This document shows, piece after piece, positions 18,696 through 61,440 of a DNA stretch of 64,000 nt; the first letter of the stretch is position 1; every line of letters starts with the position of its first letter. Position numbers and translations under genes: made by a program. The notes under the pieces were generated by a model. The model saw only the letters and a list, made by a program, of their open reading frames with translations, did not search any database and was not told where the DNA came from. The stretch lies in NCBI GenBank assembly GCA_001780895.1, contig MFJJ01000010.1, forward strand, positions 898-64,897. Reading direction: 5' to 3'. This stretch comes from Candidatus Gottesmanbacteria bacterium RIFCSPHIGHO2_01_FULL_46_14 (lineage in GTDB: Bacteria > Patescibacteriota > Microgenomatia > UBA10105 > UBA927).

Positions 18696-18725
18696 ATGTT
18701 ACTATGTTTCGAAACAAGATAACAT
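18696..18725. repeat. degenerate copy of the 30-bp palindrome ATGTTACTATGTTTCGAAACATAGTAACAT
   Basis: ATGTTACTATGTTTCGAAACAAGATAACAT has about 3 mismatches in the right arm. It sits 3 nt beyond the stop of the P-loop kinase gene. Confidence 0.7.
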
Positions 18726-18728
18726 GAA

Positions 18729-19244
18729 TCATCGGAAGTATTCGTGTATCCACGATTCAATCGACAATGATCCATCATAGGAAATGACATGCTCATCAGG
18801 TGTTGGAGGTTGAAAGTTATCTGCAACCTCGGTAAAATCTTCGTCTCGAACATCATATCGTTCTTTGGTTTGTCTATTGCTTTGCCAACGTTGTCTTGCG
18901 ACTGACTCGGGAATGTTTACATAAATAACTATTGAATCAGTTCCGACTTTTTCAGCTATAGCACGGAGTTTGTCTCTTTGTTCTCGCGTAAAATTAGCCG
19001 TATCGTTGATAACTGTTCTACCCTCACGTAAACGTAGTTCTGTTCGTTCATAAGAAATTCGGTATGTTTCTTTCCAATCCTCATTGGAAATTTCATCATT
19101 GCTGAGTTCTCTTAAACCTCGTTCACTATTGATTTCATCCAAATCTACGCGAACCCACCCGAAGTGCTTAACGAGTTCGTTGGCAAGAGTTGTCTTTCCT
19201 GCAAATGGTAAGCCGCAAAATATAAGAAGCACAGTCTCGTTCAT
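18729..19244 (-). CDS. P-loop kinase / AAA-type ATP-binding protein (zeta-toxin / polynucleotide-kinase-like fold)
   Basis: Walker A motif GLPFAGKTTLANEL. 171 aa with no other domain. Bracketed by 30-bp palindromes. Confidence 0.5.
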   Translation of the reverse strand: MNETVLLIFCGLPFAGKTTLANELVKHFGWVRVDLDEINSERGLRELSNDEISNEDWKETYRISYERTELRLREGRTVINDTANFTREQRDKLRAIAEKVGTDSIVIYVNIPESVARQRWQSNRQTKERYDVRDEDFTEVADNFQPPTPDEHVISYDGSLSIESWIHEYFR

Positions 19245-19250
19245 GAGATT

Positions 19251-19280
19251 ATGTTACTATGTTTCGAAACATAGTAACAT
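19251..19280. repeat. 30-bp perfect palindrome ATGTTACTATGTTTC|GAAACATAGTAACAT (putative operator, shared by divergent genes)
   Basis: Perfect 15+15 inverted repeat, 7 nt upstream of the kinase start and 17 nt upstream of the TrpR-like gene start. Confidence 0.8.
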
Positions 19281-19296: not shown

Positions 19297-19737
19297 ATGA
19301 CGCAAATATCAAAATATCCTCTACGAAAAGAAATTGAGAATCGGATGCTTGAGGTTTTTCTTGATAGCATAGGGATGGTAAAAACCCGAGAACACGTCCA
19401 GAAACTCATTGATGATCTCTTCTCTCCTACCGAGCGCGTAATGCTCGCAAAACGCCTGTCTATAGCACTGTTGCTTCTTAAGAAATATGATCAGAGGACG
19501 GTAGCAAGAATACTCAACGTAAGCTTAGGAACGGTAAATAAAGTGAGCTTAGCGCTTCAGAAAGGAAATGGAGGGTATGAATTGGTCGTTAATTCTATAG
19601 TTCGACAGGAGAAATTTCACGCGTTTTTAGAGAAAATCGATGAAACACTCGTAGATATCGTTACCACGGGTCATTCTCTTCCTAATTGGCGTCGCGTGCG
19701 GTGGGAAACGAAAATCCGCAATCGAAAGCCTTACTAA
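19297..19737 (+). CDS. TrpR/YerC/YecD-like DNA-binding protein
   Basis: SPTERVMLAKRLSIALLL...QRTVARILNVSLGTVNKVS, a TrpR-like HTH of the YerC/YecD family. 146 aa. Confidence 0.55.
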   Translation: MTQISKYPLRKEIENRMLEVFLDSIGMVKTREHVQKLIDDLFSPTERVMLAKRLSIALLLLKKYDQRTVARILNVSLGTVNKVSLALQKGNGGYELVVNSIVRQEKFHAFLEKIDETLVDIVTTGHSLPNWRRVRWETKIRNRKPY

Positions 19738-19740
19738 CAC

Positions 19741-19770
19741 ATGTTACTATGTTTCGAAACATAGTAACAT
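19741..19770. repeat. 30-bp perfect palindrome, third copy
   Basis: Identical to 19251..19280. Starts 4 nt after the stop of the TrpR-like gene. Confidence 0.8.
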
Positions 19771-19825
19771 AAAAATGTAAAGCATAGGAAGATAAGTTTT
19801 TTTTGATGAATGCTATACTTAAGAT

Positions 19826-20113
19826 ATGGCAGATATTACCCAGATGTGTACGAAATGCGGGAAGAAATTTTTGATAATTAGTCAGGAACAGGAATTTCTT
19901 AAAAAGAAAAATTTGCCTCTTCCGACGCTATGCCCTTCAGATCGACAGGCAAGGCGTCTTGATGACCGCGGAGAACGAACGCTATATAAAACAACTTGTC
20001 AGGAATGTGGCGCGAACATGATTGCCTCGTATGATCCCGCAAAAGAGAAGAGTAAAATTTTTTGTAAAAATTGTTACCGGAAGTATTTCGAAACACACGA
20101 GTTGGTATCATGA
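19826..20113 (+). CDS. zinc-ribbon protein
   Basis: 95 aa with CTKC...CQEC...CKNC pairs. Its stop overlaps the ATG of the next gene (ATGA). Confidence 0.45.
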   Translation: MADITQMCTKCGKKFLIISQEQEFLKKKNLPLPTLCPSDRQARRLDDRGERTLYKTTCQECGANMIASYDPAKEKSKIFCKNCYRKYFETHELVS

Positions 20114-21006
20114 CAGCTGAAGAATTTTACTCTCAGTATCTCGTTCTCAAACATTCTCTTCCCCAGTCTGCTACGCATAGTCATAGCAACGAAAACTCAG
20201 AGTATGTAAGTTACAGTTACCGATGCAAGAATTGTTACTATTGCTTTGATTGTGTCGATTGTAGAAACTGTTTGTATTGTTTCGATTGCGTACGCAGTAA
20301 CGATTGTCTAGATGGTGATTATTGCGTTGAGTGCGAGCAACTCTACGAGTCTGTTGATGCATATCGCTGCTACAACAGTGCGTTTCTCAACTACTGTGCA
20401 CGGGTTTATGACAGCTATTTTTGTCGCAATTGTTTTGACAGTCACAATCTTTTCGGATGTGCCGATCTCAAGCAAAAACAATATTGCATTTTTAACAAGC
20501 AATATACAAAAGAAGAATACGAAAAACAGGTTATAGAGTTATTGAAAATCGTACCCAAAGAGCATCTGAAAAAATTGAATGAACTCGCGAGTCAACATCC
20601 TATTGGTCCGACGTACGTCTCGAACTCCGAAAACAGTGACTATGGCAATCAAGTGCACTACTGCACGAGCTGTTATCTTTGTTTCGACACTGCTCGAAGT
20701 AATGACTTAGCATATTCATACGATACGGCATACTGTACAAATTCAATGGATTTGACATACTGCTACAAAGCAGAACTCTGTTACGAGTGTACCGATAGTT
20801 CAAAGATTTATAACTGTGATTTTATCGAGTGGTCGAGCGAGTGCTTTGATAGCGCGTATTTAACCAATTGCAAAGATTGCCATAATTGTTTTGGCTGTGT
20901 AGAAGTTGCGCATAAACGGTTTTGTATTCTCAATAAGCAATATTCGCAAGAAGACTATAAAAAGGTAGTTAGCGAAATTGTGGTTTCTAGACAAGCGGTT
21001 CACTAA
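20110..21006 (+). CDS. Cys-rich tandem-duplicated protein (Cys every third residue: CxxCxxCFDCxxC...), unknown family
   Basis: About 33 Cys in about 298 aa. Two homologous modules of roughly 110 aa, each ending C(I)FNKQY(T/S)xE(E/D)YxK. Start trimmed to ATG 20110 (ORF track begins at 20071). Confidence 0.5.
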   Translation: MTAEEFYSQYLVLKHSLPQSATHSHSNENSEYVSYSYRCKNCYYCFDCVDCRNCLYCFDCVRSNDCLDGDYCVECEQLYESVDAYRCYNSAFLNYCARVYDSYFCRNCFDSHNLFGCADLKQKQYCIFNKQYTKEEYEKQVIELLKIVPKEHLKKLNELASQHPIGPTYVSNSENSDYGNQVHYCTSCYLCFDTARSNDLAYSYDTAYCTNSMDLTYCYKAELCYECTDSSKIYNCDFIEWSSECFDSAYLTNCKDCHNCFGCVEVAHKRFCILNKQYSQEDYKKVVSEIVVSRQAVH

Positions 21007-23173
21007 ATGCTTGTGCTTTTGCCTCAGCGACCGATGGTATGCCAGATTCTTCAAGCAGCCCAATCTCTTTTTCCACTTCAGATCTCGGACGTGCGAATCG
21101 CTCGCGGGACGTTCGCACGATATCGTTTGCAAGATCCTCGTCGGGTTTGGGGAAATTAAGCGTGCGGCCGGAAAACGGTGGAGCGGTTTGCCCATCGATC
21201 GTCATTTTTACGTAGAAATTTCGCATATCTAAATTGAGAAAATCTTTTGGCGAAAAGGTTGGCGTATATTCTTTTTCAAGAACTGCTGCGTCTTCGCCGC
21301 CGACGCGAAATGAAACAATACTTCCGATATTACCAAATATGGTGGAGCGGACTTCTTCCGGCAGTTGCATCATATACTGGTGCGCAACTGTGAGATTCAA
21401 GCGATATTTTCTGGCTTCCGAAAGAATATTCGAGAAAGCGCTTGTGGCGAAATTTTGAAACTCGTCGATATACAAGTAAGTATCTTTTCTGTCCTCTTCT
21501 GCTAAACTTGCCCGAGCAACCGCTGCTTGCCAAAGCTTGGTAATAAACATTGCACCCAGTAGCGCGCTATTTTCCTCGCCCAACTTTCCGATTGCAAAAT
21601 TGGCAATAAGAATTTTTTCGCCGTTTATGATTTCGTCGAGTTTAACAGAACTTTTTGTTTGACCAACAATATTTCTGATAATCGGGTTGGCGACAAATTG
21701 ACCGACTTTATTGATAATCGGCGTAATTGCTTCGCCGGCAAATTGCTCGTTCCACGACGAAAACTCCGTCGTCCAGAATTTTTTTACCAAGGGATCCTGA
21801 ATTTTGGCGATAATTTCCTGTCGATAGCGGATATCAGAAAGCATATTGGTAATGCCCAATACCGTTGCACCGGGAACATCAAGAAGTGCGAGCGTTGTGT
21901 AGCGAAGCACGTGTTCTAATCGTTGATTCCAGGTGAATGAAAATAACTTCTTAAATATTGCGATAAATCCAGCAACGACAGTTTGCTTAAACTCATACGT
22001 CCCTACTCCTTCGAGCGGATTGAAACTCATGGGGTAGTCAATATCAGAAGGATTAAAATACACAACGTCGTAGAGTCTCTCTCTGGGAATATAGCGAAGC
22101 ATTTCTTCGGAAAGATCGCCGTGCGGGTCCATGATGACGCAGCCTTTTCCCTGTCGAATATCAGCAAGAGCGAGAAGTTGGATGAGTTTACTTTTTCCGA
22201 CCCCAGTTTTTCCGATGATGTAGAGATGTTTTCTTCGATCTTCTCGCTTAATACCAAACTCCGTCGAAACTCCCCGAAAATTGGTGGTGGCAAAAGGAAT
22301 AATTGCGGGTTTGGTGGGCAAATTTATCGGCGGCTCGGCGGTTTTCGATTTGGCTACTGATACTTGCGCGATACCGGAGGAGGCTAGGGGCAAGTGATAC
22401 ATCGTTGCCAGTTCATCTCCTCCCAAAAGAAATGGTTTTGGCGAGGCGGTACGCTGCCGGAACGCATCGACTGCGCGGGGATTACTGCCACGCTTCCAGA
22501 TTTTGAGTGAGTTGAGATTTGGGTTATCGAGGATTTTAAAGAGTGCAGAAACTGATGAGGCGAGCAGTTCCGATTTTGTATCCGCGCTTGCCGCAATGCG
22601 AATTGTTGTCGAAAACAGCGATTTGTGCAATTTTTCTGTCTCCTTTTCCTGAAGTAGTTCCCGCATGGAAGAATTTTTCCTCATGCTTTGTCTCCATGAA
22701 GTGCGAAGCATTTCGCGAAATTTGAATGAAAGTGACTCATTGTTTACCGGGCTTACGATGACTTGAATGCCAATGAGGTCATTGCCGGAAATACTTGATG
22801 CCATTCCGGATAAAGCGGACAGAAAATCAGTTTCGAGTTCCTTATACGTTTTGATGGGATAGGCATCCGGCCGTTCTAATTTTAGGATTATCACGTGTGA
22901 CGAAAGAGAGAGCGAGCCGGTGTAGTCGGTAACCTCAACGATTTCGAGCGTTGGATACTGGGAAAATAACTGTCCGCGGACGATATCGACGTTGCTTCGT
23001 TCGGTGACGACAAAAAAATACAAGAATCCGCCGCGCACCACAATCTCAAATGAGAGTGTGGCGGGGTGATGGCGAAAAAGTTCGGAAAGCCCTGTAAATA
23101 TGGCCTCCGCTGCCACCGGCCCCCGGTCATTTTCCCTGGGGACTTTAAGATGCAGGACAACAGGCGCGTTCAT
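20987..23173 (-). CDS. TraD/VirD4/HerA-FtsK superfamily P-loop ATPase with about 300-aa N-terminal domain
   Basis: Walker A IIGKTGVGKSKL, then the CVIMDPHGDL motif typical of coupling-protein/DUF87-like ATPases, then a Walker B-like LYIDEFQNF. 728 aa. Confidence 0.5.
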   Translation of the reverse strand: MNAPVVLHLKVPRENDRGPVAAEAIFTGLSELFRHHPATLSFEIVVRGGFLYFFVVTERSNVDIVRGQLFSQYPTLEIVEVTDYTGSLSLSSHVIILKLERPDAYPIKTYKELETDFLSALSGMASSISGNDLIGIQVIVSPVNNESLSFKFREMLRTSWRQSMRKNSSMRELLQEKETEKLHKSLFSTTIRIAASADTKSELLASSVSALFKILDNPNLNSLKIWKRGSNPRAVDAFRQRTASPKPFLLGGDELATMYHLPLASSGIAQVSVAKSKTAEPPINLPTKPAIIPFATTNFRGVSTEFGIKREDRRKHLYIIGKTGVGKSKLIQLLALADIRQGKGCVIMDPHGDLSEEMLRYIPRERLYDVVYFNPSDIDYPMSFNPLEGVGTYEFKQTVVAGFIAIFKKLFSFTWNQRLEHVLRYTTLALLDVPGATVLGITNMLSDIRYRQEIIAKIQDPLVKKFWTTEFSSWNEQFAGEAITPIINKVGQFVANPIIRNIVGQTKSSVKLDEIINGEKILIANFAIGKLGEENSALLGAMFITKLWQAAVARASLAEEDRKDTYLYIDEFQNFATSAFSNILSEARKYRLNLTVAHQYMMQLPEEVRSTIFGNIGSIVSFRVGGEDAAVLEKEYTPTFSPKDFLNLDMRNFYVKMTIDGQTAPPFSGRTLNFPKPDEDLANDIVRTSRERFARPRSEVEKEIGLLEESGIPSVAEAKAQAFSEPLV

Positions 23174-61030: not shown

Positions 61031-61050
61031 CCAGTTTATCGAAATTGAAT

Positions 61051-61440
61051 ATGACTAGGGTATCCCGAGTTCCGCTCAGTAACAAAGAGAAGTTGTCATT
61101 GACTGAAGAGTTTTGGAACACACTCGGAGAATTGAATAAAACGCAGGTCGAGCATTTTTTTAGAGAGTTCTTTTCGCCAACGGAGATTGTAATGTTTGCA
61201 AAGAGACTTCATATTTTAAAAAGTCTTCGACAGAACACTACATATGAGCACATACAACAAGGCATTAAGGTTACTGAGCCTACGATCGCCAAGATGAGTG
61301 CAATACTGCAACGCGGCGATGAAGATTTTTTCCGTATTCTTGATTACTTAATTCGTGATGAAAACAGTAGATGGCAAGCATATCTCGATTCTCGTAAACC
61401 TCACATTCGGGGAAAAATGATTTTTCATGTTAATAGATAG
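61051..61440 (+). CDS. TrpR/YerC/YecD-like DNA-binding protein (second copy)
   Basis: SPTEIVMFAKRLHILKSL...TYEHIQQGIKVTEPTIAKMS. ORF-track start 61045 is TTG; ATG is at 61051. Confidence 0.55.
   Translation: MTRVSRVPLSNKEKLSLTEEFWNTLGELNKTQVEHFFREFFSPTEIVMFAKRLHILKSLRQNTTYEHIQQGIKVTEPTIAKMSAILQRGDEDFFRILDYLIRDENSRWQAYLDSRKPHIRGKMIFHVNR

Follow-up and report, generated by a model that had tools for sequence, protein, structure and literature searches.

In a 64,000-nucleotide (nt) stretch of contig MFJJ01000010.1 from Candidatus Gottesmanbacteria bacterium RIFCSPHIGHO2_01_FULL_46_14, the whole of which was analysed and is called the window below, three genes at positions 19826-23173 were found to make up a conserved gene module of the candidate phyla radiation (CPR) that has not been described before. 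The first two, on the forward strand, code for a protein of 95 amino acids (aa) that its domain matches identify as a basic double treble-clef zinc finger, and for a Cys-rich protein of 298 aa that structure prediction shows to be an acidic, internally duplicated, narrow beta-solenoid. The third, on the reverse strand, codes for what its model shows to be a soluble hexamer-type P-loop ATPase of the VirB4/VirD4/HerA fold, with its catalytic motifs intact. Our leading explanation, to which we give a little less than an even chance, is that the two-subunit zinc-finger/solenoid protein may serve a dedicated soluble ATPase of the coupling type as its client or adaptor. No known system joins these parts, and we rate the module as categorically new.

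The solenoid gene (20110-21006, + strand) encodes an acidic protein (pI 5.1). The list of open reading frames (ORFs) puts its start at a TTG at 20071; every homologue begins at the ATG at 20110-20112, and this codon overlaps the TGA stop of the zinc-finger gene (20111-20113), so that the coordinates confirm the ATGA coupling of the two genes that had been claimed in an earlier reading of this DNA (the original prediction). The same reading had described a protein of 11 percent Cys, with a Cys at every third position and with two homologous modules of about 110 aa that each end in a conserved block. Much of this description stood: the protein is indeed rich in Cys, the exact value being 10.4% (31/298), eight successive Cys are spaced by three at positions 39-60, and both modules close in the conserved block (CIFNKQYTKEEYEK and CILNKQYSQEDYKK). 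The duplication is real as well, residues 1-146 aligning without a gap to residues 147-298 at 33% identity (E 5e-29, self-alignment), and the module size had to be corrected to about 146 aa. All Cys-Cys spacings of up to 30 residues are multiples of three, and lag 3 accounts for 15 Cys pairs and lag 9 for 18, with about 3 expected for each. The Cys stand at positions divisible by 3 in module 1 and at positions congruent to 2 modulo 3 in module 2.

The AlphaFold2 (AF2) model of the solenoid protein has a pLDDT of 78.5 and a pTM of 0.70. Module 1 is laid out as an N-terminal helix, rungs with a period of 6 residues (39-67), rungs of 9 residues, the cap motif FGC-x8-CIFNKQY and a helix. Module 2 has an unbroken 9-residue Cys ladder (209, 218, 227, 236, 245, 254, 263, 272) and ends in the cap motif FGC-x8-CILNKQY, followed by a C-terminal helix. 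For the family, the motif that closes each module reads FGC-x2-L-x2-K-x-(Y/F)-C-I-x-N-x-Q-Y, and the signature residues are P18, D68, N129, D214, G262-C263, N275 and Y283. An extension of tblastn alignments past the solenoid stop codon was considered as the relic of a lost C-terminal domain and was rejected.

The original prediction could not assign the Cys-rich protein to a family, and neither could we. Matches were absent from Pfam, NCBIfam and PADLOC, a profile search of the PDB gave nothing significant, and a comparison of the fold with viral structures likewise gave nothing significant (best E 1.3e-3, TM 0.13). No description of the family was found in the literature, and the main text of the Southlakia genetics paper does not mention the module genes. 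A word-indexed search returned 158 homologues, all of them hypothetical or unnamed, and a profile search that covered 1.84 billion cluster representatives (clusters at 50% identity) returned 4,007 representatives at E<=1e-3, of which 1,369 reach E<=1e-30. Their lengths are near 300, 420 and 550 aa. At least 524 solenoid-encoding loci were counted in a scan of one genome per species, and the 79 loci that were retrieved around solenoid genes are nearly all from the CPR, including Gottesman-, Roizman- and Levybacteria, Peri-/Peregrinibacteria, Gracilibacteria, Saccharibacteria, Paceibacterota and others. These loci are labelled from L001 onward, L001-L008 being the eight closest to the window; with 80 metagenome loci centred on the ATPase (L080-L159), 159 related loci were compared in all. 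Eight of them (L003, L006, L007, L016, L046 and L056; L034 and L055) have CPR-type module genes on contigs of metagenome-assembled genomes (MAGs) labelled Gammaproteobacteria/Lysobacterales or Micrarchaeota/Woesearchaeota, which could reflect mis-binning, mislabelling or true transfer.

The sole sequence-level relatives of the solenoid outside the CPR are hypothetical proteins of the Campylobacter phages CP21 and CPt10 (phrog_15341). This family, whose function is not known, was the only PHROGs or profile match, with 1.7e-16 to module 1, and in tblastn the phage proteins share 26-44% identity with solenoid residues 38-182. They hold one module only, and their phages are without the ATPase or the zinc-finger partner. 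Phage relatives of the ATPase were found elsewhere (phrog_5156, SPO1 gp27.4 and phage G gp156). There is no co-occurrence in phages: the solenoid-like genes are in Campylobacter phages, and the ATPase-like ones in Bacillus phage SPO1 and in phage G.

The zinc-finger protein scores above the gathering thresholds of two Pfam models, zf_Tbcl at residues 3-44 (34.4 bits, cut-off 24; 2.1e-8) and zf_Tbcl_2 at residues 51-86 (29.9 bits, cut-off 27; 4.6e-7). In PADLOC it gave chance-level matches only. Its first putative zinc site is formed by C8, C11 and C36 together with D39, at which most homologues have a Cys (the site reads CPSD in the window protein, CPTD in L001 and CPxC in other lineages); by sequence, the Asp could act as the fourth ligand. 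The second putative site is complete (C58, C61, C80, C83), and between the two lies a basic motif, CPxCRxxRRLxxRNERxLYxRxC, that is conserved in the zinc-finger family.

The zinc-finger gene lies immediately 5' of the solenoid gene in L001-L008, with gaps of -4 to +3 nt in L001-L007, and L013 has a split form in which it is located 3' of the solenoid. In most other CPR lineages the two are joined in a single polypeptide of about 550 aa, which is the commonest architecture (141 of the 282 classified ORFs) and which runs in the order zf_Tbcl, conserved linker, duplicated solenoid, second conserved linker (…EWGEFFP…SPFAYNET…), zf_Tbcl plus zf_Tbcl_2. Since fusion and fission forms are found across CPR lineages, comparison of the genomes shows the zinc finger and the solenoid of the window to be subunits of one protein, and the co-occurrence of these two genes in other genomes is established.

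The regular spacing of the Cys invites the view that the ladder coordinates a chain of metal ions or clusters, and a metal-binding solenoid had in fact been suggested in the original prediction. The fold is a solenoid, and the 31 Cys do stand in strict register, with four of them (C117, C126, C263 and C272) near-invariant among close relatives. The metal part of the suggestion did not hold. At ladder positions just 14-84% of close homologues have a Cys, with Ser, Leu, Ile or Val in the others, several ladder Cys are replaced even in an orthologue of 72% identity, and the Cys content of the family ranges from 3.8 to 12.7%. In the alignment 46 columns, all of the same phase, have Cys in 17-79% of the sequences. 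No position is universally Cys among 204 wider homologues, in which C126 is a Cys in 56% and Cys losses are mutually independent, and no metal-binding family was matched in Pfam, NCBIfam or a PDB sequence search. A conserved Cys4 site made of the four near-invariant residues was considered and rejected; they are the final rungs of the 9-residue ladder, a stretch in which conservation climbs steadily, and the pattern breaks down in the wider homologues. We also rejected the idea that disulfide pairing is characteristic of the family, as the presence of Cys at one position did not predict a Cys at a fixed partner (correlation between positions: mean 0.01, maximum 0.57, mean at lag 6 -0.14). Because the Cys are readily exchanged for Ser, Leu, Ile or Val and none is conserved family-wide, we conclude that the ladder is the packing of a small core residue at every third position and neither a metal site common to the family nor a run of obligate disulfides, and a metal or redox role for it is most improbable. 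The core residue is mostly Cys in the window organism and Cys, Ser, Ala or a small aliphatic residue in its relatives.

Solenoid genes were also found in arrays, with up to 11 genes per locus within 20 kb. L032 has seven fused genes, L013 has eight fused genes and one split solenoid/zinc-finger pair, and some genomes of about 1 Mb hold 9 to about 20 solenoid copies. Genes for TrmB-type helix-turn-helix (HTH) regulators of about 260 aa are placed between array members (27 genes in 19 loci, including L013, L032 and L045), and individual regulation of the members is suggested. The regulator genes are often on the opposite strand. Paralogues in one array share 40-48% identity, while their best matches in other genomes reach 50-76%, and 160 proteins had their best match in another locus, against 23 with a best match in their own. 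Since best matches are mostly in other loci, the paralogue sets are, as far as sequence comparison tells, old and maintained. A recent arms-race expansion of the paralogues was rejected, orthologues elsewhere being closer than paralogues of the same array.

The ATPase gene (20987-23173, - strand) is convergent with the solenoid gene, and the two overlap at their 3' ends by 20 nt (20987-21006), which code for the last residues of the ATPase tail. Convergent 3' overlaps recur in L001 (20 nt) and L002 (8 nt). The convergent 728-aa ATPase of the original prediction, with its GKTGVGKS and MDPHGD motifs, was confirmed, as was its separate N-terminal domain, which the AF2 model (pLDDT 88.1 for the whole protein) shows as an alpha/beta domain of about 290 residues. 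Neither the sequence nor the model has a transmembrane segment in residues 1-290. This domain has no match in the local Pfam copy; a precomputed PF26449 match exists on homologues of the ATPase. The RecA-like motor carries Walker A GKTGVGKS and an all-helical insertion at about residues 393-517. All of 62 homologues keep Walker A K327 and Walker B D570/E571, so the ATPase should be enzymatically active. Pfam models of TrwB_AAD_bind, DUF87 and T4SS-DNA_transf match it weakly but above threshold. Scores against NCBIfam models were all under the cut-offs, at 64 against 250 for conju_CD1115, 32-38 against 366-647 for TraD models and 11-14 bits against 800-970 for HerA models. More than 3,210 members of the ATPase family were found at E<=1e-10, and no other ATPase of this fold is encoded in the 64-kb window. 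A protein of Candidatus Gottesmanbacteria matches the window ATPase at 100% identity, which confirms the CPR origin guessed earlier.

Several lines of evidence tie this ATPase to the solenoid. It adjoins the zinc-finger/solenoid pair in seven of the eight closest loci, in which the flanking genes differ; the trio is kept in L001-L007 though the gene 5' of the zinc finger varies (by sequence reading, glyoxalase-like in L001, RecX-like in L002 and epimerase-like in L005). The trio of L005 comes from a MAG of Saccharimonadales. An ATPase homologue is present in 22 of the 79 solenoid-centred loci and in 19 of these 22 lies within 500 bp of a solenoid gene; for the 31 loci with full 10-kb flanks the ATPase was found in 10, in 9 of them within 500 bp. 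With about two such ATPase genes per genome of about 1 Mb, adjacency by chance is estimated at around 1%. The orientation is not fixed: the ATPase is convergent in the window, L001, L002, L005 and L007, co-directional and upstream in L008, and co-directional and downstream of arrays in L025, L032, L035, L045 and L047. The expectation that the three genes co-occur is therefore borne out for the trio as such, and the ATPase link had to be narrowed to a subfamily. Both findings that the original prediction had named as telling against it were looked for; the Cys-rich protein belongs to no known family, and the genes do co-occur.

The subfamily is seen in a neighbour-joining tree of 130 ATPases. 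Those adjacent to solenoid genes group there in three neighbouring clades, namely the window type, a short type of 490-535 aa and a Peri-/Peregrinibacteria type, and other clades, with forms of 880-1,040 aa, split two-gene forms and other forms of 720-760 aa, are almost without solenoid neighbours. Of the 29 solenoid-adjacent ATPases, 22 have a C-terminus of Pro followed by two hydrophobic residues; of the 101 others, 3 do (Fisher p 7e-16). Both the clade and the tail-motif statistics ignore phylogeny and are to be read as consistency, not proof. The tail typically reads F-x-E-P-L-I, with F723 and P726 of the window protein invariant, and it is the candidate docking peptide. Outside the solenoid-linked clades the ATPase most often neighbours a protein of about 350 aa with a sigma-70 region-4-like HTH (32 loci in L080-L159). 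Many ATPases of L080-L159 are split into two adjacent genes, the first halves of which end in a conserved PPxNLPxE motif.

We suggest that the zinc-finger/solenoid protein would dock on the conserved disordered C-terminal tail of the ATPase, as a coupling ATPase docks its partner. The C-terminal tail of F-plasmid TraD binds TraM. The basic zinc fingers would form the end that binds nucleic acid or the ATPase, the acidic solenoid would be a rigid body whose Cys ladder would serve structural packing and not as a metal store, and the ATPase would assemble, remodel or translocate the solenoid protein.

A number of observations weigh against this proposal. About two thirds of the solenoid loci are without an ATPase inside 10 kb, and about 73 of the 80 ATPase-centred metagenomic loci are without a solenoid, which leaves about 7 with one. 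In the window the ATPase is not co-transcribed with the pair, because its gene is convergent. The MAG MFD09206.bin.2.20 (L009, L010, L012, L014, L015, L017, L018 and L037) has about 20 stand-alone solenoid genes of 300 aa in small tandem clusters over an 894-kb contig; tblastn detected no zinc-finger partner in it, and just one of its solenoid clusters adjoins an ATPase. Shared descent and retained synteny could be the source of much of the clade and tail signal, the solenoid of the window may by itself have a local metal site, and the standing of the module as a functional system would come from comparative genomics throughout. The one ATPase beside a solenoid in that MAG (L018 7634-9994) has an N-terminal membrane helix and so is unlike the window ATPase.

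Taken further, the loci in which one partner stands without the other could mean that the zinc-finger/solenoid pair is self-contained, as a structural or regulatory protein, and that the adjacency to the ATPase is inherited synteny. The convergent genes of the window and the confounding of the association statistics by phylogeny are in keeping with this. It does not explain why the ATPase, where present, is so often within 500 bp of the solenoid gene, nor why adjacency is retained over several CPR classes with differing orientations and flanking genes, nor the tail motif that is common to the adjacent ATPases and lacking in other clades, and we hold a pair with no functional ATPase link to be quite unlikely.

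A DNA-centred machine was also considered, in which the zinc fingers would bind DNA or RNA, the solenoid would be a spacer bridging two nucleic-acid sites and the ATPase would be a DNA translocase, acting as FtsK, HerA and TrwB do in a setting such as recombination, DNA uptake, segregation or defence. The zinc finger, with a pI of 9.0, has its conserved Arg-rich motif, the folds nearest to the ATPase belong to motors that handle DNA, among them DptH from a restriction system, and PADLOC gave weak partial matches of the ATPase to mad8 (1.4e-13) and HerA (7e-8). TrmB-like regulators are scattered through the arrays, and genes for RmuC and a UvrD/AddA-like helicase lie beside the module in the window, L001 and L006. 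Only related genomes share this synteny, and the genes directly upstream vary. The module has no nuclease, methylase or other effector domain, PADLOC has no match of note for the solenoid or the zinc finger, and the paralogues are old and orthologous between genomes (160 against 23), unlike fast-evolving defence genes. We found no evidence in the module supporting a role in defence or DNA transfer, and we regard a DNA-centred machine as unlikely.

Another possibility is that the paralogues are handed by the ATPase to the type IV secretion apparatus of Patescibacteria for delivery to the host and that, after export, the Cys ladder is oxidised to disulfide staples, as in insect antifreeze solenoids. 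The paralogue arrays directly adjoin the ATPase, and the bep genes of Bartonella are placed beside virD4 in the same arrangement. The solenoid, narrow and with a Cys ladder, is similar to secreted antifreeze proteins, a membrane helix is present at the N-terminus of one homologous ATPase (that of L018), and CPR bacteria are enriched in extracytoplasmic thiol-disulfide oxidoreductases (10.1101/335083). However, the window ATPase lacks a membrane anchor, a signal peptide is absent, zinc fingers are uncommon outside cells, and the missing covariation of Cys pairs (mean -0.14 at lag 6) is contrary to obligate disulfides. VirB4 or another family like those of type IV secretion systems (T4SS) does not recur among the 159 related loci. 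Of 5,713 VirD4-like genes in 2,918 Patescibacteria genomes, about two per genome, just 148 are near virB4, and t4cp was dispensable in the sole species tested (PMC12102498). Secretion of the paralogues as clients is thus, in our estimate, very unlikely.

Bacteria of the CPR, or Patescibacteria, account for a large share of bacterial diversity and have genomes of about 1 Mb, much of whose gene content is unexplained. The solenoid domain defines a family of about 4,000 clusters at 50% identity that has no Pfam or NCBIfam model, and 9 to about 20 copies of it are a heavy investment for genomes of this size. Its striking Cys ladder is a clear case of core packing and not of metal chemistry. One subfamily of orphan VirD4-like ATPases would be tied to a specific partner family and a tail motif, and the solenoid protein would be the first candidate partner. 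The question of what such an ATPase does would become tractable by binding and deletion experiments with recombinant proteins. In a wider and more doubtful version, which we think somewhat unlikely, the module may be a widespread ATP-driven CPR system in which an orphan VirD4-like ATPase subfamily recognises zinc-finger-capped solenoids through the F-x-E-P-L-I tail, after which it would build a structure from them in the cytoplasm or cell envelope or send them out towards the host, the array paralogues being building blocks or cargo. If true, some of the approximately 5,700 unexplained T4CP-like genes of Patescibacteria, whose exaptation to another role was left open by a 2025 survey (PMC12102498), would gain a function.

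Features of the module and its upstream region (positions in the window)
Feature	Position	Strand	Basis and remarks
Palindrome copy	19741..19770	.	perfect, 30 bp, 56 nt upstream of zinc-finger ATG
Extended -10-like promoter element TGcTATACT	19811..19819	+	read from sequence; ends 6 nt before zinc-finger ATG
Zinc-finger gene	19826..20113	+	95 aa, pI 9.0; Pfam matches and alignment with stand-alone and fused copies
Solenoid module 1 (residues 1-146)	20110..20547	+	AF2 model, self-alignment, Cys phase analysis
Solenoid module 2 (residues 147-298 and stop)	20548..21006	+	AF2 model, self-alignment, Cys phase analysis
ATPase disordered C-terminal tail (residues 714-728)	20990..21034	-	pLDDT below 50; ends AFSEPLV
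ATPase motor (residues ~295-713)	21035..22291	-	Walker A 321-328, Walker B D570/E571
ATPase N-terminal alpha/beta domain (residues 1-~290)	22304..23173	-	AF2 pLDDT ~90

The module lies among a usual chromosomal set of genes (MetRS, TatD, RmuC, UvrD-like helicase, DnaK/GrpE/DnaJ, IF-2 and PNPase) in a region whose G+C is nothing out of the ordinary, and no tRNA or Rfam element and no further copy of any module gene was found in the 64-kb window. Upstream of the zinc-finger gene, a consensus promoter scan that required both hexamers did not list the -10-like element. A TATACT/TATAAT-like hexamer is also located 6-10 nt 5' of the zinc-finger start in L001 and L004-L007, and there is no Shine-Dalgarno sequence. 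With the hexamer so close to the start codon and no Shine-Dalgarno sequence, the zinc-finger mRNA is suggested by the sequence to be leaderless or near-leaderless.

A 30-bp palindrome (ATGTTACTATGTTTCGAAACATAGTAACAT), none of which is expected by chance, has two perfect copies, the one in the table and one at 19251-19280, and an imperfect copy with 3 mismatches at 18696-18725. The palindromes flank two genes, a kinase (18729-19244, Pfam AAA_33) and a TrpR-like gene (19297-19737). The original prediction had taken them to fence the block off from core genes, which they do not. In the syntenic locus L001, also from Gottesmanbacteria, RmuC and the zinc finger are not separated by the kinase and TrpR-like genes, and no counterpart of the palindrome was found upstream of the zinc-finger gene in L001-L008; the palindromes therefore more likely belong to this neighbouring cassette than to the module. 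The TrpR-like regulator may use them as operators, or they may mark the ends of a cassette that was inserted, and the copy next to the zinc-finger gene could place the module under the TrpR-like regulator in this genome. A second TrpR-like paralogue (61045-61440) is 29% identical to the first (E 6e-12) and has no palindrome nearby.

When compared with known systems, the window ATPase shares with the type IV coupling proteins TrwB, VirD4, TraD and DotL a TrwB-fold P-loop motor that carries both Walker motifs (A and B). Those proteins have a membrane anchor and act in the context of a T4SS and relaxase; the window ATPase has instead a soluble alpha/beta domain of about 290 aa, and no T4SS or relaxase genes are near it. 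VirB4 and DptH gave equally good fold scores. HerA works in pairs with an enzyme, such as HerA-NurA or the defence pairs HerA-Sir2 and HerA-DUF4297, whereas the partner in the window has no enzymatic domain, no PADLOC match and many old paralogues, and no nuclease neighbour, NurA or other, lies beside the window ATPase. Among the anti-phage systems in PADLOC none is matched in full, the solenoid having no match and the ATPase partial ones.

The zinc-finger protein belongs with Pfam zf_Tbcl (PF13451) and zf_Tbcl_2 (PF23477), entries that are described as probable zinc-binding domains only, with no function assigned, and that fused proteins bear at both ends; it falls below the cut-off of TIGR04272 (CxxC-x17-CxxC; 26.7 against 36). 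For the solenoid, the metallothionein, ferredoxin and DnaJ zinc-finger types would lead one to expect conserved ligand Cys, whereas its Cys are not conserved and these families are not matched, and the Pfam Hexapep repeats of hexapeptide left-handed beta-helix transferases were not found in it. The Tenebrio molitor antifreeze protein (TmAFP, PDB 1EZG), the coil of which has the consensus TCTxSxxCxxAx with a small residue at each third position, is like the solenoid in geometry only. The two are without significant sequence relationship (E 5.9, PDB profile search), and the CPR protein has no T-x-T ice-binding face, signal peptide or obligate Cys pairs. What both share is a small residue at every third position of a narrow coil, and to this the CPR solenoid adds mixed coil lengths of 6 and 9 residues, a duplicated module, helical caps and a zinc-finger partner.

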